This document shows, one piece after another, positions 1,385-14,602 of a DNA stretch of 14,602 nt; position 1 is the stretch's first letter, and every line of letters starts with the position of its first letter. Source of the DNA: a virus (Duplodnaviria; Heunggongvirae; Uroviricota; Caudoviricetes); IMG/VR virus record IMGVR_UViG_2908567220_000007. One strand, 5' to 3'. Made by a program: the position numbers and the translations under genes. The notes below the pieces were generated by a model, which worked only from the letters and a program-made list of their open reading frames with translations, did no database searches and was not told the DNA's origin.

Positions 1385-1470
1385 ATCATCGCGGGTCCTC
1401 CTGGATGGGTACCCTTACCGCGGGGCGACGGACGCGCGGAAAAAGGCTGGTTTTTGCATTTTCATGGCGG
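1385..1470 (+). other. cos-like site copy A (cosQ-like CGGGTCCTCCTGG, cosN-like GGGCGACGGACG at 1423..1434)
   Basis: Alignable to the lambda cosQ/cosN junction and to the in-window cos at 2425; a 35-bp stretch (ccttaccgcggggcgacggacgcgcggaaaaaggct) is identical to the reverse complement of 4113..4147 (copy B). Confidence 0.5.
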
Positions 1471-1890: not shown

Positions 1891-2424
1891 ATCTGTGATT
1901 TGCTGTTCTTCGCTGTGTTGGTATGGGGAGTTCTGGCAATGGTTCAGGCCGTCGCTTTCCTGGTACGTGATTTTTTACGTTCATTATTGTGCTGGTGGCA
2001 GCGTCACGGTGTGTCACGACATATCACCATCACGTCACGCTGATTGCGAAAGCCAGGATTAACCAGTACCGGAACGGGTAGCCCGGTGTATTGTTACCGT
2101 CCTGCCTGCTGGTGGAGTAATTGATAACGGTTATCATCAACGGGAGGGGCGGATCAAATCCCTGCAGTCCTGGCTGTCCGGGACCGCCCGCCTACCCTTG
2201 TTCACATCGCCGCAGGTTCGAAAACTTTTTTTTTGGGAAGGTGTGCACAGACTTGATAGGTAAAACCTATCAGGTAAAGCCACGTCAAACCCGCGCCATT
2301 GCTGGCATCGTTAAAAAAACTCACTCCACCAGCAGGCTAAAAAACTGTGATTTTTCCAGCTTTTGGGGCTCAAAAAGGGCTCCCTAAAAAAACTCTCACA
2401 CTGTCGGAGGGGGCGGGAAATTTT

Positions 2425-2640
2425 CACGGGTCCTTTCCGGGATCTGAAACACCGCGGGGCGGTAGACGCGCAGGATTTCACTATTTATGAAAATTTTTCA
2501 GGGGAAAAGCGTGTCGGTACTTCTCGCGCATAACTGTTTGTTTTTATTAAAATCAACCACCAGAAACATACGACATCATAAAGCCAAAAAATCCTGTTTT
2601 TTTGGCGTTTCATGTCGGAGGTGGTTTTTGATAATAAATT
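2425..2640 (+). other. lambda-like cos site (cos1): cosQ-like 2427..2440, cosN-like GGGCGGTAGACG 2457..2468, cosB-like region downstream
   Basis: ttcacgggtcctttccgggatctgaaacaccgcg|gggcggtagacg|cgcaggatttcactatttatgaaaattttt closely matches the lambda right-end/left-end junction as I recall it (TTTACGGGTCCTTTCCGGTGATCCGACAGGTTACG|GGGCGGCGACCT|CGCGGGTTTTCGCTATTTATGAAAATTTTCC). Confidence 0.7.
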
Positions 2641-2759
2641 GGTGGATTAATGTTAATAAAAATGTTTTTACTACCTGATGGAAACAACCGGAAACGTGCC
2701 GGAGAAATTACGGCAACAGAAAGGTGAGTGACAGCCGCGCAATTATTGAACAAAACTGA

Positions 2760-2952
2760 GAAAGGATCTGATAACGTCATTTTTGGCCCAAAATGCCTAC
2801 TGTCAGATCCTTTCTTTTTTTGATGATTTTACGATTAAACAATGAGTTACAGAGAAGAAGAACGGATCTGACTTTTCCCGAAAAATTTTCATAAACAGTT
2901 AAGAATTGCGCGTACCCGTACCCCCGGCGCTTAAGGTTCCGGGAAGGACCCG
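2760..2952 (-). other. second lambda-like cos site (cos4), inverted; cosQ-like 2939..2952, divergent cosN-like around 2911..2925, cosB-like region including an inverted repeat at 2760..2821
   Basis: Minus strand reads cgggtccttcccgg...gggggtacgggtacg cgcaattcttaactgtttatgaaaatttttcgggaaaagtcagatccgttcttcttc, matching lambda cosB (TTTATGAAAATTTTCCGG...CCGTTCTTCTTCG). The inverted repeat GAAAGGATCTGA...TCAGATCCTTTC resembles the lambda inverted repeat AAAGGAAACGACAG...CTGTCGTTTCCTTTC. Confidence 0.6.
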
Positions 2953-3067
2953 CCGGAGATAGCTACCATAAGGCGTAATTAAATATCCGTGGATGTGCCA
3001 CGGAACAACCAGCTGAATACAGGTCAGCGTGATGACGGGAAATAAAGAGAATGGTTGCGAATCCTCC

Positions 3068-3092
3068 ACCTGGTGAATCTCCTGCACTACCT
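3068..3092. repeat. 25-bp direct repeat (copy 1) of the 3' end of the Nu1-like gene
   Basis: cctggtgaatctcctgcactacctg is identical at 3068..3092 and 3445..3469; the second copy encodes the C-terminus QVVQEIHQGE of the 3437..3985 ORF. Confidence 0.85.
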
Positions 3093-3436
3093 GTCATTTT
3101 TGCGCAAATACCCCTGGCATTTCTAAGCATGATCAACCTGATCATTGTTCGCGGTTTTTACGTGGCAAGGCCAGTAATTACGGGGCTTACATCAATGTTT
3201 ATTCCGCCCATCTCTGCGCAAAACAACTTAACAAACCTTAACATCACAGGCGGAACCATTGCGCAAATCTGGAGGCTTACCGCACGCACCAGCCTGATAC
3301 ATTGCCAGAATGAACGAGGTGCGACACAATGTGTGTGCATGTCTTACTCATTGAACCTCAATCAAGGCGCATCCTTAGCGGTGCGCTTTTATTTTTTTGT
3401 CGTTCCCTGCTGGTGGATGTTTTCCGGTACCGCGAA

Positions 3437-3985
3437 TTATTCCCCCTGGTGAATCTCCTGCACTACCTGCGGCGTGCTGTCGTGCCAGTCGTTAGCCTGT
3501 ATCACTCTGGTAGTAATTTGCCTGCACAGGTCATCAATAATCTGCCTGACGCGGTTTACTGCGTTCTGATTGATGCCTGCATCGTGCGCCAGAATGTCGG
3601 GGAGTTTTGCCAGTTCCTCGCTTAAGATTTTCCCAAAAATAACCAACTCCCTGCGCACATCCACGGCGGGGATAAGTTCAGCCGTTTCCTGCTCGAACTT
3701 AAGGCGCTCACGCTCAGACTGGTACCAGGCTTTACGGCTTTGTGGATCCATGTCTTCGAGTGATGCGGGGGCGGGTATATTCATGAATGCGCTGATTATA
3801 TCCGTCAGTCGGTACAGCTTTAATTTTTCATGCCCTCCGGCTGGCTGAATGTCCTTTAGCCTTTTCGCTACTGTCTGGCGGCAAACTCCCGCCAGTTCTG
3901 CGAGTTGATTGATATTAAGTTTCAGGTTTTTAAGCTCCCGATCCATTCGTCCTCCGGTAGTTTTAAATGCGTATCGTGCGCTCAT
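3437..3985 (-). CDS. Nu1-like terminase small subunit / packaging-redirection protein (N-terminal HTH)
   Basis: 182-aa ORF; N-terminal NINQLAELAGVCRQTVAKRL...KLYRLTDIISAF resembles the lambda Nu1 HTH (NKKQLADIFGASIRTIQNW...VLYDSAAVIKWY). Sits about 150-190 bp downstream of cos copy B, as Nu1 does after lambda cos. An internal Met at 3944..3946 with GGAGGA upstream is an alternative start. Confidence 0.55.
   Translation of the reverse strand: MSARYAFKTTGGRMDRELKNLKLNINQLAELAGVCRQTVAKRLKDIQPAGGHEKLKLYRLTDIISAFMNIPAPASLEDMDPQSRKAWYQSERERLKFEQETAELIPAVDVRRELVIFGKILSEELAKLPDILAHDAGINQNAVNRVRQIIDDLCRQITTRVIQANDWHDSTPQVVQEIHQGE
3445..3469. repeat. 25-bp direct repeat (copy 2), overlapping the 3' end of the Nu1-like gene
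   Basis: Exact match to 3068..3092, 377 bp apart. Confidence 0.85.
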
Positions 3986-4100
3986 CTTTCAGTGGGTTAA
4001 AAGTGTTCTGTATGTTGAACAAAAAACACCCCAAATTAACATAGTAAAAATATATTTCATTTTAATTCAACATGTTGGAAAGATGATGATGACGGATGAA
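3986..4100 (-). promoter_or_regulatory. AT-rich cosB-like / promoter region upstream of the Nu1-like gene, with inverted TGTTGAA/TTCAACA sites
   Basis: atgttgaac at 4005..4013 and ttcaacatgttg at 4059..4070 form inverted copies about 50 bp apart in an AT-rich stretch, similar in layout to R elements flanking an IHF site in lambda cosB. Confidence 0.4.
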
Positions 4101-4185
4101 AATGTAAAAATTAGCCTTTTTCCGCGCGTCCGTCGCCCCGCGGTAAGGCCACCCCTCCGGAAGGACCCGTAAAAAAAGCCGGAGT
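4100..4185 (-). other. cos-like site copy B (cosQ-like 4157..4170, cosN-like 4127..4138 on the minus strand)
   Basis: Minus strand reads tttacgggtccttccggaggggtggccttaccgcg|gggcgacggacg|cgcggaaaaaggct, matching the lambda cosQ/cosN junction and near-identical to copy A at 1391..1448. Confidence 0.55.
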
Positions 4186-4194
4186 GTTCCGGCT
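4171..4194 (-). terminator. putative rho-independent terminator after the PerC-like gene
   Basis: Minus-strand hairpin AGCCGGA-acac-TCCGGCT followed by TTTTTTT (plus-strand A-run 4171..4177). Confidence 0.5.
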
Positions 4195-4277
4195 TCGTCT
4201 GTGTATGTGCGCATATGCAGGATTTTATGTTATCCGCCCACGGGAGTGATGGTCATTTTTCAGGATAATATCCGGCA

Positions 4278-4565
4278 TCACTGGTTACCGCCAGGCTGCT
4301 TCGGGTAGTTCCGCCAGACGGATTTACCCGCGTCTTCCATCCCCATCACCGCATGAGTGCGGTTTACAGCCTCTTTCAGTGCCCCGAAGTTATCCGCCAT
4401 AACGGGTGGGCGTGCTGCCCTGCGGATGCATTCCGCGCGACGCTTTGCCACCTGTTCGCGCTCCTTATCGGTGTTCACCAGCTGCATGACCTCAGCCCAC
4501 CGCGCCGCCGCTCTCCGGTACAGGCCTTTAGCCTCCAGTTCTTCCGCTTTGCTGTCACGAATCAT
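4278..4565 (-). CDS. PerC-family-like small transcriptional regulator
   Basis: 95-aa ORF MIRDSKAEELEAKGLYRRAAARWAEVM...RRAECIRRA, paralogous to 1..303; start overlaps the stop of the upstream ORF by 4 nt. Confidence 0.55.
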   Translation of the reverse strand: MIRDSKAEELEAKGLYRRAAARWAEVMQLVNTDKEREQVAKRRAECIRRAARPPVMADNFGALKEAVNRTHAVMGMEDAGKSVWRNYPKQPGGNQ

Positions 4566-5098
4566 GCGCCTGTCTTCTCCTTTGTCGCCTGACGTTTGCG
4601 CTTTTCATTCAGTGCTGCCAGCCGCGTTTCTGCCTCCTGCTGTTCCTGTGGTGTCACTTCCCCACATGGCTGGCCTTTCAGGTCGTAACGTGTGCCACCA
4701 GCCATTAAGGCGCGGTAATAGCGCGGAGACTGCGCATAAGATGCCAGCGTCGCACGTAATGCCCCCGGCCCGAATGTCAGCCCCCTGGCGGCGATATCCT
4801 GTATCAGGTCGTCGAATATCCCCACCTTAAGCGGCTTCGGTGCTTTATGGCTGAATAAGTCAGGCCACATCTCAGTGAGGCGGTTAACGCGTCGGCGGTT
4901 TTTGCGCTGCCTTTTGGTCATATGCTGACACGGTGTCGCCCCTGCGGTCTTCTGTTTGCGGCTCTGCTGTGCGTTCTGATTATCGGGTATCACTTTATGC
5001 GCCGATGTGGTTTTATCCTGCTCTTGTGCCGCCTGCGTCGTTTTCTGCGGCGTGCCGTAAATGCCTTTCGGTTTTCGGTTAATGGTCAGCTTTGTCAT
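4562..5098 (-). CDS. ProQ/FinO-domain protein (putative RNA chaperone)
   Basis: 178 aa; PLKVGIFDDLIQDIAARG...LRATLASYAQSPRYYRAL...GTRYDLKGQPCGEVTPQEQQEAE resembles the ProQ N-terminal FinO domain (PLKIGIFQDL...LRSALRLYTSSWRYL...[23 protein letters not shown], recalled). Basic, low-complexity N-terminus. SD AGGGGA upstream. Confidence 0.7.
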   Translation of the reverse strand: MTKLTINRKPKGIYGTPQKTTQAAQEQDKTTSAHKVIPDNQNAQQSRKQKTAGATPCQHMTKRQRKNRRRVNRLTEMWPDLFSHKAPKPLKVGIFDDLIQDIAARGLTFGPGALRATLASYAQSPRYYRALMAGGTRYDLKGQPCGEVTPQEQQEAETRLAALNEKRKRQATKEKTGA

Positions 5099-5134
5099 GC
5101 CTTCCCCTGTAATTACGCTGTTCGCTGTTGTGAA

Positions 5135-5560
5135 TTAAAACGGTATGTTATCCCCGTACGGGTCATCGTGCTGGCTTGTCTGTTGTTTTGCCCTGTTCAG
5201 TGCGTCAGTGGCCTGGCCCTGTTGACCTTTTTTGCCGCCCGGTCGCGCCGTTCGCGCACTGATTACGCTGTCTGCAATAACCTGCCAGCCCTGCCGCGTT
5301 TCCCCGTTCTGGCCTGTCCACTGGCTTACCTGCATGTTACCCGCCACGCTCACCAGTTCGCCTTTCTGGTGCCTGGCCAGTGCGTCGGCCTGTCTGCCAA
5401 ACGCCAGGACGGATAACCACATCGTCGCCGTTCCGTCATCTGCCTGGCTGCACGGCAGGGGAACCGCCATACTCGCCATCGCCATTTGTGTCCCTTTGCT
5501 GGTGGTCTTTAACTGCGGGTCAGCCACCAGCCGCCCGTAAGCCGCTATCTGTGCTGTCAT
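5135..5560 (-). CDS. ssb: single-stranded DNA-binding protein (SSB-like)
   Basis: 141 aa; OB-fold-like N-terminal region (AAYGRLVADPQLKTT...GTATMWLSVLAFGRQADALARHQKGELVSVAGNMQVSQWTGQNGETRQGWQVIADSV), Gly/Gln-rich linker and a C-terminal DDPYGDNIPF resembling the canonical SSB DDDIPF tip. ATGA overlap with the upstream ORF. Confidence 0.7.
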   Translation of the reverse strand: MTAQIAAYGRLVADPQLKTTSKGTQMAMASMAVPLPCSQADDGTATMWLSVLAFGRQADALARHQKGELVSVAGNMQVSQWTGQNGETRQGWQVIADSVISARTARPGGKKGQQGQATDALNRAKQQTSQHDDPYGDNIPF

Positions 5561-6330
5561 GCTGTATGTTCTCCGTTTTTTACTGGCCCTGTCATCAGTG
5601 CGCGCTTAAGCTGCTTGTGTGAGATATTAAACAGGCAGTTCATTCTTCCCGTTCGCTTCATCCGATAACCCGATGCGACCATTGCGGCGATTAATGCGCC
5701 GTTTGTGATGTATGTCGGCTCTGTTGGTTGCCCGTCGCCCTTAGCTCTTCTCTGATTCACACGCTCAACACAATGTTTCAGGCCGTAGGATGTCGGATTT
5801 TTTCCAGGGAATGATGCAATCTTACAGTCGGTTAGGTTGTTCTCCCTTATCCAGCGTAAACAGCTCATCGCCTCCGCCATGAAGGGCGCATAATCAAGCG
5901 GGTGCTGCCATGCCTTATCACGGCTGTACAGTTCAAGTCCGTCGCGGTTAAAAAACGGGTAAGCGGCAAGAATTACCGTTACTGCGTGTTTAATTTCCAC
6001 CTCATCATTCTGTCGCTCTTTTTCTGTTCCGTACGGATAATAATCAGAACCGCCCGGATTGATGCACTGTTTACCACTGAAAGGCCATTGCTTCGCCATT
6101 TCGGGGGTTGAGTGATTACCGTCGCTCCGTTCTCGTTGTGCCTCTGTCCACTGGCTGGCGTATTCCGTAAAACTCACCGCCTTACTCTGTCGCATCCAGT
6201 GCGCAATCATGACCAGCGTTCTGGTAAGGCTCTGTATATCTCCGTGCTTCTCACACTGTCCCGCAAAGGCCTTGAGCGCTTCGCGTTCTTTGTAGTTCAT
6301 ACCCTGACGGGTCATATTTTCTTTATTCAT
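5557..6330 (-). CDS. hypothetical protein, replication-module associated
   Basis: 257-aa ORF immediately downstream of the iteron array and translationally coupled to the SSB-like gene; no family recognised by eye. Confidence 0.55.
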   Translation of the reverse strand: MNKENMTRQGMNYKEREALKAFAGQCEKHGDIQSLTRTLVMIAHWMRQSKAVSFTEYASQWTEAQRERSDGNHSTPEMAKQWPFSGKQCINPGGSDYYPYGTEKERQNDEVEIKHAVTVILAAYPFFNRDGLELYSRDKAWQHPLDYAPFMAEAMSCLRWIRENNLTDCKIASFPGKNPTSYGLKHCVERVNQRRAKGDGQPTEPTYITNGALIAAMVASGYRMKRTGRMNCLFNISHKQLKRALMTGPVKNGEHTA

Positions 6331-6511
6331 TCCCCACTACTCCCCGCTTTTGTTCCCCACTTTTTAAATTTCCCACTTGCTTCCCACCTCGTTTTTTGGG
6401 TGAGTCTAATACTTTGTTTTTCATTGTATTTTTTACTCCCCACTTTTTTGGATGTATACAGGCCGGAAAGTGGGGAATAGCGTTTCAATTTTGTTAAATT
6501 CCCCGCTATCC
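6331..6511. repeat. iteron-like repeat array (putative replication origin), left part
   Basis: Eight copies of TCCCCACT-like heptamers (CCCCACT, CCCCGCT, TCCCACT, TCCCACC) at about 6332, 6342, 6355, 6371, 6382, 6438, 6501 plus an inverted copy GTGGGGA at 6470, around an AT-rich spacer (6391..6435). Confidence 0.5.
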
Positions 6512-6596: not shown

Positions 6597-7247
6597 ATGA
6601 ATGCACGAAAAGCGGTACTGGCAGACAATCCGGAATTGATCCTGCGTGTGCTACAGCTGAGATTTGACGAGTCACTGTCGTACCCGCGCATTTCTGCGCA
6701 GACCGGTGTCAGCAAAACCGCCATTTTTTCTCTGGTGAGGCGATTTCACCAGGTATTCACTGACTGGCCTCTTTCCGGTGAATATTCCTGCGGGCAACTG
6801 GCCCGGGCTCTTTTCCCGGGGCGATACCCTTCAGCCCCGACCGTGACTCAGCCTGTGAAAGCAGAGAAACCCCGCCGGAACCGATTTTCACCGGAGTTTA
6901 AATGGAGACTGGTTCAGCAAACTCTTTTACCCGGTGCCTGTGTCGCACAAATAGCTCGAGAGAATGGAATTAACGATAACCTGCTCTTTAACTGGCGGCA
7001 TCTCTGGCGTAACGGTGGCCTGCAACCGCCCGGCGAACATGAAACATCGCTACTTCCCGTGACGTTAACTCCGGAGCCGGATAATAAAATCCCGGCACCA
7101 GTGCAGATACCTGAACAGATAAATACACTGCCAGACAGTCTGTGCTGCGAGCTGGTTCTGCCGGCCGGAACTCTCAGGCTGAAAGGTGAACTGACACCGG
7201 CGTTATTACAGACACTTATCCGCGAAATGAAAGGGAGCAGCCACTGA
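6597..7247 (+). CDS. tnpA: IS66-family accessory protein (orf1)
   Basis: 216-aa ORF, first in the IS; AAGGGA Shine-Dalgarno; ATGA overlap with the next ORF, as is typical for IS66 elements. Confidence 0.75.
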   Translation: MNARKAVLADNPELILRVLQLRFDESLSYPRISAQTGVSKTAIFSLVRRFHQVFTDWPLSGEYSCGQLARALFPGRYPSAPTVTQPVKAEKPRRNRFSPEFKWRLVQQTLLPGACVAQIARENGINDNLLFNWRHLWRNGGLQPPGEHETSLLPVTLTPEPDNKIPAPVQIPEQINTLPDSLCCELVLPAGTLRLKGELTPALLQTLIREMKGSSH

Positions 7248-7594
7248 TGATATCTCTCCCTGCCGGTTCGCGTATCTGGCTGGTTGCCGGTATCACCGAT
7301 ATGCGAAATGGCTTTAACGGCCTGGCCTCAAAAGTTCAGAACGTCCTGAAGGATGACCCGTTCTCCGGGCATCTGTTCATCTTCCGCGGACGCCGGGGTG
7401 ACCAGATAAAAGTGCTGTGGGCTGACAGTGACGGACTGTGCCTCTTCACCAAACGCCTGGAGCGGGGCCGCTTCGTCTGGCCGGTCACCCGCGATGGAAA
7501 GGTTCACCTTACTCCGGCTCAGTTGTCCATGCTTCTCGAAGGCATCGACTGGAAGCACCCGAAACGAACGGAACGCGCTGGCATCCGCATATAA
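7247..7594 (+). CDS. tnpB: IS66-family protein TnpB (orf2)
   Basis: 115-aa ORF MISLPAGSRIWLVAGITDMRNGFNGLASKVQ...LFIFRGRRGDQIKVLWAD, characteristic of IS66 orf2. Confidence 0.85.
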   Translation: MISLPAGSRIWLVAGITDMRNGFNGLASKVQNVLKDDPFSGHLFIFRGRRGDQIKVLWADSDGLCLFTKRLERGRFVWPVTRDGKVHLTPAQLSMLLEGIDWKHPKRTERAGIRI

Positions 7595-7613
7595 CCCGTT
7601 GTAAAGTGAGGAT

Positions 7614-9185
7614 ATGGACACCTCACTTGCTCATGAGAATGCCCGCCTGCGGGCACTGTTGCAGACGCAACAGGACACCATCCGCCAGATGGCGAAATAC
7701 AACCGCCTGCTCTCACAGCGGGTGGCGGCTTATGCTTCCGAAATCAACCGGCTGAAGGCGCTGGTTGCGAAACTGCAGCGCATGCAGTTCGGTAAAAGCT
7801 CAGAAAAACTTCGCGCTAAAACCGAACGGCAGATACAGGAAGCCCAGGAGCGAATCAGCGCACTTCAGGAAGAAATGGCGGAAACGCTGGATGAGCAATA
7901 TGACCCGGTACTGCCATCCGCCCTGCGCCAGTCTTCAGCCCGTAAGCCGTTACCGGCCTCACTTCCCCGTGAAACCCGGGTCATCCGGCCGGAAGAGGAA
8001 TGCTGCCCGGCCTGTGGTGGTGACCTCAGTCCTCTGGGGTGTGATGTGTCAGAGCAACTGGAGCTTATCAGCAGCGCTTTTAAGGTTATCGAAACACAAC
8101 GTCCGAAACTGGCCTGTTGCCGGTGCGACCATATCGTGCAGGCACCAGTACCTTCAAAACCCATTGCACGCAGTTATGCCGGAGCGGGGCTTCTGGCTCA
8201 TATCGTCACCGGGAAGTATGCAGACCATCTGCCGTTATACCGCCAGTCAGAAATATACCTTCGTCAGGGCGTGGAACTGAGCCGCGCCACGCTGGGGCGC
8301 TGGACCGGTGCCGTTGCTGAACTGCTGGAGCCGCTGTATGACGTGCTGCGCCAGTATGTGCTGATGCCCGGTAAAGTCCATGCGGATGATATCCCCGTTC
8401 CGGTCCAGGAGCCGGGCAGTGGTAAAACAAGAACTGCCCGGCTGTGGGTCTATGTCCGTGATGACCGTAACGCCGGTTCACAGATGCCCCCGGCGGTCTG
8501 GTTCGCGTACAGCCCGGACCGGAAAGGTATCCATCCACAGAATCACCTGGCCGGTTACAGCGGTGTGCTTCAGGCAGATGCTTACGGTGGTTACCGGGCG
8601 TTATACGAATCCGGCAGAATAACGGAAGCCGCGTGTATGGCCCATGCCCGGAGAAAAATCCACGATGTGCATGCAAGAGTGCCAACCGACATCACCACGG
8701 AAGCCCTGCAGCGTATCGGTGAACTGTATGTCATCGAGGCAGAAGTCCGGGGATGTTCAGCAGAACAGCGTCTGGCAGCAAGAAAAGCCAGAGCGGCTCC
8801 ACTGATGCAGTCACTGTATGACTGGATACAGGAACAGATGAAAACACTGTCGCGTCACTCGGATACGGCAAAAGCGTTCGCATACCTGCTGAAACAGTGG
8901 GAGGCCCTGAACGTGTACTGCAGTAATGGCTGGGTGGAAATCGACAACAACATCGCAGAGAACGCCTTACGGGGAGTGGCCGTAGGCCGGAAAAACTGGC
9001 TCTTCGCGGGTTCCGACAGCGGTGGCGAACATGCGGCGGTGTTGTACTCGCTGATCGGCACATGCCGTCTGAACAATGTGGAACCAGAAAAATGGCTGCG
9101 TTACGTCATTGAGCATATCCAGGATTGGCCGGCAAACCGGGTACGCGATCTGTTGCCCTGGAAAGTTGATCTGACCTCTCAGTAA
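7614..9185 (+). CDS. tnpC: IS66-family transposase (orf3)
   Basis: 523-aa ORF with N-terminal coiled-coil/leucine-zipper-like region, CCPACGG...CCRC zinc-finger-like motif and a long catalytic core, as in IS66 transposases; GAGG Shine-Dalgarno. Confidence 0.9.
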
Positions 9186-9215: not shown

Positions 9216-9243
9216 CGCTATCCCCACTTTTATCCCCCACTTT
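9216..9243. repeat. iteron-like repeat array, right part (separated from the left part by the IS66 insertion)
   Basis: cgctatccccacttttatcccccactttt carries two further CCCCACT copies immediately after the right target duplication and just 3' of the helicase stop at 9244. Confidence 0.5.
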
Positions 9244-10650
9244 TTACAGTGGATGCACGTCATTGCCGTCGATAGTGATCACGCCGTCTTTTTCCAGCTT
9301 GTACAGCCAGCGCCGGAAGTGCTTCATCTCATACCCCAGCTTTTTCATATCGTCACGTAGCAGGGCGATAGTGCACGGCTCTTTGTGTGCTGTCCGTGTT
9401 CTTATGCACTGCCATAATGCGGCGTGATTCTCCGTCTTGTTCCCGGCCTCCTCGATGCGTTCCAGTTCAGCAGGGGCGCGGGGAACGTCAATCACCACCA
9501 TGGACACAATCTCTTCGCCATCTGTATCGGTGAACACCTCCACGCTTTTAAGGTCGTATGCGCTCTCTTTTGGCTCCTCTGCGTCCTTCATCTTCGTACA
9601 TGCCGCCACCAGTGCTGTAACGTCTGAATTTTCCCGGCCGATTCGGTACTCTGCATCAAGCGCGGCACGGAATGCGCTGGAACCACGCGCCCCCTTTGTT
9701 TCATCCTTGCCGGAATGGTGAACCACCAGCACCGTGGCCCCTGTAGCCTGCTTTATCGCGTCACACCCCTGGATAAATGCGCCCATATCACGGGAATCAT
9801 TTTCATCATTCCCACCAAAGCAACGGGCCAGCGTGTCGATCACAATCAGCCGCACATTTTCGCCCGTTCTGCTCTTAACAAGTCCGGCAGTCCTGATAAC
9901 CTGCTCCACATAGTCAGGCGATGCGGGAAAGACAGGCGCGTTAACGATGCACAAATCTGTAACCTCTTTTCCGTATGTTATCTCCCACGCCTTAACGCGG
10001 CGTTTTACGCCCATACTGCCTTCGCCAGCGATATAGATAACCGCGCCCTTACTTACCCTGCGGCCTCCCCATGCCATACCTGTGGCAACATGGCACGACC
10101 AGGAAATAGCCAGGAACGATTTATAAGAACCGCTGGCCCCGTAGGTGCTGCATAATGACTCAGCCGGAATAAGCCCCTTAATTACGTAGCTTTGCTGCGC
10201 GTCGAATCCCTCAGAACCCCATGAGATGGGAAGTGTGATTTTTCGCTTTCCACCATTCATGACCAGACTTTCCCCGCGTTCCCAGGTTTCTTTAAGCCGC
10301 GGTAGTTGCTCGCTCCAGTCCTCCAGCAGTTCGAAATTCTCTGAAAGTAACCGTGCTTCCTGGACACCTGCGATCGCCAGTTTGGTGGCAATGGTCAGCA
10401 TCTGCATATCGTCCAGGTTTCCGGCGCGTATGACCTTTGCTCTGTATCGTCCTTCATCAACAATCTGTAAATTGTCCAGTTCGCTTAACTGATAACGGCC
10501 CAGGTAAACCGGAGGGATGGGATCGCCTGCTTTTTTGGCCTGTGCAATCATGTAATGTTCTGCAAAGGAGTGAGCATTATCACCCGCAAAAATAACCGCC
10601 TCAGTGTGTTTATCTTTCGGTAACAGTTTTACGTTCGGTGCCAGTTTCAT
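9244..10650 (-). CDS. RepA-like P-loop replicative helicase (RecA-fold ATPase)
   Basis: 468 aa; P-loop-like GASGSYKS, Walker B-like RLIVIDTL, and VLVVHHSGK motif reminiscent of RSF1010 RepA-type helicases; C-terminal winged-helix-like tail; AGAGGT Shine-Dalgarno; followed directly by the iteron array. Confidence 0.75.
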   Translation of the reverse strand: MKLAPNVKLLPKDKHTEAVIFAGDNAHSFAEHYMIAQAKKAGDPIPPVYLGRYQLSELDNLQIVDEGRYRAKVIRAGNLDDMQMLTIATKLAIAGVQEARLLSENFELLEDWSEQLPRLKETWERGESLVMNGGKRKITLPISWGSEGFDAQQSYVIKGLIPAESLCSTYGASGSYKSFLAISWSCHVATGMAWGGRRVSKGAVIYIAGEGSMGVKRRVKAWEITYGKEVTDLCIVNAPVFPASPDYVEQVIRTAGLVKSRTGENVRLIVIDTLARCFGGNDENDSRDMGAFIQGCDAIKQATGATVLVVHHSGKDETKGARGSSAFRAALDAEYRIGRENSDVTALVAACTKMKDAEEPKESAYDLKSVEVFTDTDGEEIVSMVVIDVPRAPAELERIEEAGNKTENHAALWQCIRTRTAHKEPCTIALLRDDMKKLGYEMKHFRRWLYKLEKDGVITIDGNDVHPL

Positions 10651-13360: not shown

Positions 13361-14602
13361 TTACACGGCACGGATACCCCTTTTACCACTGGCTATGGTC
13401 ACTCCGGTAGCTGCGGCCTCTACAAATTCCCCCCACCAGCGCATAAGCACCACGCGCTTTTCCAGGTAGTTACTTCGGTTATATGCTCGCCTTACCTCGT
13501 TTGTGTCCACGTGTGCGAGTGCGGCCTCGATTACGTCCGGCTCGAATCCTTCCTCGTTCGCTGCTGTACTGAATATGGCGCGTAATCCGTGAGACACCAG
13601 CACACCAGCGTAACCCATCCGGCGCAATGCGGCGTTAGCTGTCTGGCTGCTCATTGGCAGCATTGGATTTTTAAGGCTGGGAAAAACGTGTTCCCTGTGT
13701 GCGCTGATTGGCTTCATGGTTTCCAGTACAGCCATAGCCTGACCGCAAAGGGGGATCACGTGGTCACGGCGCATCTTCATGCGTCCGGCTGGAATCGTCC
13801 AGGTTTCGGCATCGAGATCTATTTCTTCCCAGCGTGCGGCGGCTGCTTCGGCTGGGCGTGCTACGGTCAGCAGTTGCCACTCAATCAGCAATCTGGTTTG
13901 CCGTTCTATGCTGGCGACCGATAAATCGTGCATTAGCTGCGGTAGCTGTTCCGGTCGGATGGTTGGCATGTGCTTTTTGGTGGGTGAGGGGAATGCCTTG
14001 CGGACGTTCGCGGCGGTGTTGATGTCAATCAGCCCACTGTTGGCAGCAAAATCCATCACTTCATTGATGCGTTGTAAAACGCGTTTCAGGGTTTCCAGGT
14101 TGCCGCGTGCTTTAATGGGTGTGAGTATCTCAACAAAGCGGCGAGCTGTGAGGGTATCTATTGGCGTGTTTCCGATGTACGGGAATACGTATTTTTCCAG
14201 GGATCGCCAGATATCCTTAATCGTGTTGTAAGCCAGATTCTGGCCTTTTTTCATCTCGTACCAGTCCGAGGCAACTTTTTCGAACGTGTTGCCCTTTTTC
14301 CGACTCTCTGCTTCACGTTTCCGGCGTTCGTGGTCCTGTGGGTCAACTCCCTTCGCTATGAGTGACCTGTATTCATTCCGTCGTTCTCTGGCATCGGACA
14401 GGGAAACATCATTCAGCGATCCGAGGCTGATGATAGTCCGTTTTTTATCTGCCGGGCGGTAGTACGTAAAACGCCAGATTTTTGATCCGGAGGGTTTCAC
14501 CAGAAGAAATAATCCTCCACCATCCTGCAGGGTGTATTCCTTTTCCCCTGGTCGTGCGTTTTTGATCTCCGTAATAGTTAGTGGGGTGGTTTTTCGTGCC
14601 AT
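13361..14602 (-). CDS. int: P4-type tyrosine integrase (site-specific recombinase, phage integrase family)
   Basis: 413 aa; N-terminal arm-binding-like region (MARKTTPLTITEIKNARPGEKEYTLQDGGGLFLLVKPSGSKIWRFTYY); C-terminal catalytic region with HGLR box and RRAYNRSNY tyrosine region. Start codon is the last three bases of the window. Confidence 0.95.
   Translation of the reverse strand: MARKTTPLTITEIKNARPGEKEYTLQDGGGLFLLVKPSGSKIWRFTYYRPADKKRTIISLGSLNDVSLSDARERRNEYRSLIAKGVDPQDHERRKREAESRKKGNTFEKVASDWYEMKKGQNLAYNTIKDIWRSLEKYVFPYIGNTPIDTLTARRFVEILTPIKARGNLETLKRVLQRINEVMDFAANSGLIDINTAANVRKAFPSPTKKHMPTIRPEQLPQLMHDLSVASIERQTRLLIEWQLLTVARPAEAAAARWEEIDLDAETWTIPAGRMKMRRDHVIPLCGQAMAVLETMKPISAHREHVFPSLKNPMLPMSSQTANAALRRMGYAGVLVSHGLRAIFSTAANEEGFEPDVIEAALAHVDTNEVRRAYNRSNYLEKRVVLMRWWGEFVEAAATGVTIASGKRGIRAV

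Follow-up and report, generated by a model that had tools for sequence, protein, structure and literature searches.

The closest described systems to the locus examined in this study are the cos-type phage-inducible chromosomal islands (PICIs) resembling EcCICFT073, an island in which two cos sites have been reported (Fillol-Salom et al. 2018, PMC6092414; 2019, PMC6739421). The window analyzed here (the whole stretch of 14,602 nucleotides from IMG/VR record IMGVR_UViG_2908567220_000007) has in common with these islands a terminal integrase gene, a replication gene with iterons after it, a PerC gene, two lambda-like cos sites, and a packaging region located downstream of the replication module. 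Capsid, tail, and lysis genes, which EcCICFT073-like PICIs also lack, were not found among the scanned ORFs of the window, and the annotation of sister islands agrees. This gene content suggests that the window is an E. coli PICI of the cos type, which would be induced and packaged by a helper phage. A near-identical island (L003) is located between tRNA-Pro/yejM and yejO, and others occupy further E. coli chromosomal sites. Compared to EcCICFT073, the window carries its own phage-type small-terminase gene (terS; of DUF1441 type here and of Nu1 type in sister islands) and not Rpp, and its cos sites include an additional outer pair that belongs to another phage type. Furthermore, the box array described below shares no boxes with the published cos1/cosB sequence of EcCICFT073 (PMC6092414 supplement), and its identification as the EcCICFT073 cosB was rejected for this reason. 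The CCCCACTTTTT iterons of the window lie just 3' of the helicase gene (9221-9246 and 6330-6479) and are split by an IS66-family insertion; this element has apparently inserted into the putative replication origin of the island.

Two well-known processes also bear on the repeat that is the subject of this study. Short direct repeats give rise to deletions through replication slippage or short-homology recombination, as at the lacI hotspots and in tandem-repeat deletion in E. coli, and lambdoid phages and their satellites have mosaic module boundaries. The locus resembles the former in that it has direct repeats of 25-29 bp at a distance of 376 bp, and in that natural variants exist with exactly one repeat and the spacer lost, the process here being proposed from genome comparison. 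It resembles the latter in its sharp switches of affinity (at the right end of the 25-mer, at ~3250-3295, and at ~3052) and in the alternative neighbors seen in different islands, but differs in that a duplicated gene end has been left behind, which is not general for such boundaries.

The exact 25-mer CCTGGTGAATCTCCTGCACTACCTG is present in two copies in the window, both on the plus strand (Table 1), and none of 200 dinucleotide-preserving shuffles contained such a match, even with up to three mismatches tolerated. The repeat is real and cannot be due to chance. An earlier note, made from the sequence of the window, had described this exact repeat with copies starting at 3068 and 3445 around a 377-bp segment; the repeat and the position of copy 2 stand as described, while copy 1 actually starts at 3069, and the figure of 377 bp has to be replaced by a start-to-start distance of 376 bp, with 351 bp of enclosed DNA (3094-3444). 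The repeat grows to 29 nt if one mismatch is admitted (28 of 29 positions identical; 3065-3093 and 3441-3469), and a weaker likeness with one indel, as read from the sequence, reaches left to a common GCGAAT at ~3058 and ~3433. The counterpart of the left extension of copy 1 is GCGAATTATTCCCC (3431-3444), which contains the terS stop codon, and an alignment places the two left flanks opposite each other. Copy 2 covers residues 173-180 of the 182-aa ORF of terS, or 160-167 counted from the PGAP start. On the minus strand, copy 1 together with its left flank translates to QVVQEIHQVEDSQ, from which the stop codon is absent; the peptide at this point is QVEDSQ for the window, QGEDSQ for L004, and QGENSQ for L010. 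At the equivalent point, the terS homologue P0002 (contig L020) reads HQGDNS, and by our own reading the likeness runs past the stop position to GCGAAT. Because the three peptides match HQGDNS and the likeness continues past the stop, copy 1 looks like the relic of a gene end, and we infer that it derives from the 3' end of a terS gene, as a relic or as a duplicate.

Table 1. Positions and strands of the main features of the window, with the basis of each assignment or a remark.
Feature	Position	Strand	Basis or remark
cos1, lambda-like	~2430-2640	+	aligned with lambda cos
cos2, lambda-type (cosQ, cosN, R-like elements)	~2760-2960	-	convergent with cos1
Terminator-like hairpin	2986-3004	-	downstream of copy 1
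Degenerate left extension of copy 1, GCGAATCCTCCA	3056-3068	+	read from sequence
Copy 1 of 25-mer	3069-3093	+	putative non-coding duplicate or relic of terS 3' end
S-left, non-coding array of short boxes	3094-~3250	.	motif scan; homology to terS-less islands
S-right, native 3' flank of terS	~3296-3444	+	homology to L020
Small-terminase gene (terS), DUF1441 / PHROG 141 type	3437-3985	-	Pfam and PHROG profile matches
Copy 2 of 25-mer	3445-3469	+	codes QVVQEIHQ on minus strand
cos of DUF1441-terS phages, upstream of terS	4096-4169	-	one inverted-repeat arm; BLAST match of cos parts
SSB, ProQ/FinO, PerC genes	4278-5560		
IS66-family insertion	6597-9185		HTH_Tnp_1, TnpB_IS66, DDE transposase
AAA_25 helicase	9244-10650		
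Tyrosine integrase	13361-14602		one island end

The gene that ends in copy 2 had been called Nu1-like, a designation that holds for its role as a small terminase but not for its family. The terS gene matches PF07278 (DUF1441; E=5e-35) and no other Pfam family, Phage_Nu1 (PF07471) giving no match, and among PHROGs it matches PHROG 141 'terminase small subunit' (E=2e-55) and, weakly, PHROG 57 (3e-6); PF07471 is instead matched by the intact terS of the sister island L002 (E=1.5e-67). PGAP places the start of the gene in the window at 3946, corresponding to 169 aa. Phage homologues annotated as terS occur in mEp460, Ayreon, phi458, vB_EcoS-606R10, and related lambdoid phages, and vB_EcoS-606R10 has terL directly after the DUF1441-type gene. 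The terS of the island is phage-derived, with copy 2 as its native 3' end. P0002, with 75% protein identity to terS, is the closest diverged homologue that keeps the C-terminal tail (...SQVAQEIHQGDNSRHS), and the L020 DNA equals 24 of the 25 bases of the 25-mer. The possibility that the DUF1441 protein is an Rpp was rejected, as the terS protein had no sequence match among PDB chains at E<=0.01, RppC included; in addition, the ORF list of the window contains none with the size and position of Rpp. Most other E. coli DUF1441 genes (~195 records) are without the QVVQEIHQGE tail, have 60-80% DNA identity, and align only from window position 3514 on. Two of these DUF1441 loci that were inspected (L027 and L028) lie between clpS and a gene encoding a fusion of a ClpP-like protease and a capsid protein, so that their islands carry capsid-protease fusion genes.

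BLAST homology between L020 and the window is significant from 3363, with an alignment that reaches ~3290 and 79% identity into terS. As this homology covers the terminator hairpin, the 25-mer, and then the gene, both copy 2 and S-right, the right part of the spacer, are native to terS. To the left of the homology, within the 1.8 kb to which this contig extends, L020 carries unrelated DNA as far as a cos2-like site, and neither a box array nor another 25-mer is present there. The state in which terS is accompanied by its native flank only is known from one diverged lineage, represented by two short metagenome contigs (L020 and L021). S-right contains a match to a sigma-70-like promoter (3302-3330, plus strand) and an intrinsic terminator (plus strand; stem 3364-3389, T-run to ~3398), and our own reading of the alignment is that the -35/-10 hexamers and the hairpin are kept in L020, with the bases in between diverged. 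The terminator may stop rightward transcription ahead of a collision with terS, and a small convergent RNA from S-right is possible. The presence of a known ncRNA in the segment, a prospect raised in the earlier note, was not borne out: Rfam gave no match across the whole window at the gathering threshold and, at E<=5 over 2300-4300, only three chance-level matches, all of them outside the segment. Accordingly, a known RNA family was rejected as the content of the segment. The fold in S-right is not unusual (z-score of -1.45).

The left part of the spacer (S-left) has different companions. Five islands without terS (L004, L010, L033, L034, and L039) carry the 25-mer, next to it S-left, and beyond that the leader of terS with its cos; the affinity switch inside the spacer falls between ~3250 and ~3295. 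Because the halves occur apart, each with one 25-mer, in different islands, the comparison shows the 351-bp spacer to be two pieces with separate histories and not one unit. Matches to the segment were found in 24 E. coli records, where every full-length match and every inspected match lies in this or a related island, and there was no match in phages. A 133-aa ORF on the plus strand (3051-3452) spans the whole segment; it has no match in Pfam or PHROG, is frameshifted by a 1-nt deletion in a 97.7%-identical island group (L023), and, by our own reading of the sequences, stops early in L004 and L010. This ORF was rejected as a gene on these grounds, which agrees with the earlier assessment that the segment holds no credible ORF.

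In a presence/absence survey of 5,426 complete E. coli genomes, the full two-copy structure with both 25-mers was identified in 17, while two genomes, CFIAFB20190172 (L001) and ETEC6335 (L022), contained one copy and no spacer and were exactly 376 bp shorter. In both, the left flank of copy 1 is followed by a single 25-mer and then by the right flank of copy 2. Presence/absence variants, a comparison proposed in the earlier note, thus exist, and its suggestion that the repeat is a recombination footprint is supported by these variants, from which precisely the spacer and one copy are missing. Because the one-copy forms are nested among two-copy forms, and because S-right is native to terS, deletion is a better reading of them than an empty target site. 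The island is located beside smrA/dgcM in L001 and beside thiM in L022, and in the interval 3470-4600 L001 has 4 differences from the window and 15 from L022; the nearest relative of L022 is the two-copy island L002, so that L001 and L022 are not sisters. Since the two occupy different chromosomal sites and are not nearest relatives, they probably represent two independent deletions, with the repeats driving recurrent, precise loss of the segment, although the non-sister pattern could also have resulted from recombination among islands instead of two deletions.

In the deleted form, TerS does not end in ...HQGE* but continues as ...HQVEDSQPFS..., read-through adding a tail of ~30 residues, and the terminator-like hairpin downstream of copy 1 would end the terS transcripts. 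PGAP labels the one-copy terS genes as pseudogenes without a C-terminus; these 'pseudogene' alleles are the products of the 376-bp deletion. Further deletions that end within or beside the spacer were found in L006 (TUM9812) and NZ_LR882057, and the locus appears to be deletion-prone in general. One of these two records has lost 3433 to near the DUF927 gene, and the other has lost 3258 to the Icd-like gene.

The most probable explanation for these observations, to which we assign a probability of roughly 0.65, is that the repeat is the scar of a mosaic recombination between two island lineages in the packaging region of a cos-type PICI, and that it now serves as a deletion substrate. An origin from two lineages is suggested because each half of the spacer adjoins its own single 25-mer elsewhere. 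One parent lineage would have had the order terS, 25-mer, terS 3' flank, while the other would have lost the body of terS and retained the box array next to the 25-mer, and a single crossover between the two would most likely have produced the two-copy structure. The resulting direct repeats of 25-29 bp, 376 bp apart, could then undergo slippage or unequal homologous exchange. In the product, one copy would remain, the array and the 3' flank of terS would be gone, and ...HQGE* of TerS would be swapped for an unrelated read-through tail. We infer this order of events; the repeat, the composite spacer, and the non-sister deleted forms are seen in the genomes themselves. Alternatively, the terS-less islands could have descended from a two-copy ancestor through deletion of 3265-4010, in which case the origin of copy 1 would be older. 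An old neutral relic would not be expected to match at 25 of 25 positions beside a flank in which ~5 of 14 differ; the pattern points to gene conversion or to a 25-mer under selection.

Selection is central to one rival of the recombination scar, in which the 25-mer is a functional DNA site, for example one that belongs to the array and is bound by a terminase or a regulator, and its overlap with terS is secondary. This reading would account for 25 perfect nucleotides next to 14 diverged ones, and for the exact 25-mer in L004 and L010, islands that were found through other parts of the locus and have 4-9% flank divergence. The signal is weak, however, as 25 nt would stay unchanged at ~8% divergence with a probability of only ~0.1 per lineage, and although the 25-mer, where present, always abuts the box array on the same side, the array is kept without the 25-mer in L043, L044, and L046, and one-copy islands persist in two strains. 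A selected DNA site is an unlikely but not negligible explanation. L043, L044, and L046 are also without 43 bp between CCCTGG micro-repeats, which are present in L039, a further sign that the locus is deletion-prone. Another rival is a product of the segment that would explain its retention, either the 133-aa ORF or an sRNA extending from the 3302-3330 promoter to the 3364-3398 terminator, with the ProQ/FinO-family protein encoded by the island as a possible partner. The ORF spans the segment exactly, but it has no family match, is frameshifted in L023, and is truncated in L004 and L010; by our own reading, promoter hexamers and hairpin are kept between the window and L020 in spite of a diverged spacer, but Rfam matched nothing in the segment at a threshold as loose as E<=5, the fold scores no better than z = -1.45, and the terminator may simply halt rightward transcription before terS. 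Moreover, a product would account for the retention of the segment and not for the repeat, and we consider this explanation quite improbable.

The remaining rival, which corresponds to the small integrated cassette or site-specific integration considered in the earlier note, is that a 351-bp cassette was inserted at the terS 3' end, that the 25-bp duplication is a target-site duplication or an attL/attR pair, and that the one-copy forms are empty sites. As with attL/attR cores and transposon duplications, identical direct repeats bracket a segment that is absent from some relatives, and those relatives have exactly one copy and no segment, a pattern that deletion explains equally well. Cargo insertions are also found directly left of the 25-mer in L010 (1.16 kb) and L039 (2.9 kb). 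However, the segment is not a unit but a composite, the halves of which are found apart with one 25-mer each, and it is absent from phages and in E. coli occurs in this island context only. Its ends have no terminal inverted repeats and no recombinase gene adjoins it, the only one found in the window being the island integrase, ~10 kb away; likewise, no tRNA or tmRNA that could have acted as an att site was found. Transposon target-site duplications are far shorter than 25 bp, and the repeat is too long for one. A transposon or MITE was rejected, given that there are no terminal inverted repeats, no copies at unrelated loci, and none in phages. With the one-copy forms nested within the two-copy forms as well, the insertion of a cassette is the least likely of the explanations considered, and very unlikely in itself.

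The content of S-left was examined for short motifs. On the plus strand, TGCGCAAA occurs three times (at 3101, 3215, and 3260, the last just past the S-left range), only inside the segment and nowhere else in the 14.6 kb. Of the three palindromic motif copies reported previously, the exact TTGCGCAA is present at two sites only (3100 and 3259), the third being CTGCGCAAA. The array additionally contains a 20-nt box, CCCTGGCATTTCTAAGCATG, at 3112-3131, a CTTAAC-N4-CTTAAC pair at 3227-3242, and CATTTTTGCGCAAA / CATCTCTGCGCAAA, repeated 114 bp apart. The position of the array is conserved in several PICI lineages: the 20-nt box and a similar layout with other iterons (TTGACACTTTTTCGCG) occur in L005, L007, L009, L011, L014, L015, and L018, which belong to another PICI lineage, and there the array lies directly downstream of a 174-175-aa HTH gene that has a TerS-like N-terminus and the same place relative to PerC and ProQ as terS in the window. 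These seven loci yielded no cos of the lambda or mEp460 type. In L005 (2960-3196), L009 (3248-3513), and their kin, there are 5-7 copies of TTGACACTTTTTCGCG, and the arrays of this type contain phased CTTAxx-N4-CTTAxx pairs in which both halves change together.

Several functions were considered for the array. A replication origin is unlikely, since the array is 100% identical between islands whose replicases differ (AAA_25 for the window, DUF927 for L003) and a separate set of iterons lies just 3' of the helicase gene; in addition, the array of L009-type islands is distant from the rep gene. A sigma-54 promoter at TGGCATTTCTAAGCA was rejected because the GG-to-GC spacing, by our own reading, is one base under the consensus. 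A decayed terS pseudogene of Terminase_2 type was also rejected, as tblastn found nothing past the 20-nt box, and stays a lead only. The 20-nt box codes MLRNAR inside an ORF of L017, and ~1 chance 19-mer match is estimated to be expected in IMG/VR. The L017 ORF (2156-3280, minus strand; 374 aa) was read as a Terminase_2-like terS, and the N-terminal part of this gene carries repeated TTGCGCAG in L017 and L016 (~1280-1570); beyond the 20-nt box, the L017 gene has no likeness to the array of the window. Our best guess is that the array binds proteins, either in packaging itself or to control the packaging genes.

A more specific proposal concerns the C-terminus of TerS, which in lambda contacts the large terminase. 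The array could be a packaging-specificity or control element of satellites that have their own terS, and recombination between the 25-mers an irreversible switch that removes the array and rewrites the TerS C-terminus, a combination that we regard as doubtful. In a variant of this switch, the 3302-3398 unit may make an sRNA antisense to the terS 3' UTR, acting with the ProQ/FinO protein.

The repeat locus lies in the middle of the packaging region, as it is located between terS and cos2 and amid the cos pairs. A 74-nt inverted repeat with 89% complementarity has its arms at 1392-1465 (plus strand) and upstream of terS (Table 1). By our own reading, the minus strand from 4170 to 3946 aligns with the cos-to-terS leader of vB_EcoS-606R10, from cosQ to the terS start codon; one arm of the inverted repeat is therefore a cos, and 1392-1465 a second copy. 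Nested inside this pair, cos1 and cos2 each contain cosQ (GGGTCCTTTCCGG), cosN, and CTATTTATGAAAATTTT, with R-like elements of their own, for a total of four cos-like sites in two nested inverted pairs. The ~2.6-kb packaging region between the outer cos pair has the opposite orientation in L010 and has therefore been inverted at least once. In sister islands (L002, L004, and L023), cos1 is followed by a Nu1-type terS (PF07471) of 603 bp, of which the window retains at ~2647-2760 a 5' end of ~15 nt, a 7-nt filler, and the last ~90 nt, a remnant that corresponds to a deletion of ~500 bp.

Taken by itself, the repeat locus is an instance of ordinary mobile-element mosaicism, which leaves short duplications that later drive deletions, and the 376-bp polymorphism could serve as a marker of this island family. 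The packaging region, with four cos sites, two small-terminase types, and the box array, is of greater interest than the repeat and bears on which helper phages can package satellites. The exact 25-mer was also observed in Clostridia MAGs and metagenome contigs (L040-L042, L029, L031, L032, and L035), with 28 nt identical to the 25-mer region in L029 and L032, and an estimated chance expectation of ~0.004 in random sequence. The L040 copy falls within a linker rich in Pro, Gly, and Glu (LPGESPALPGECGAPPGGEYPAP) that is part of an unannotated, unrelated protein, and the clostridial matches are probably a low-complexity coincidence.
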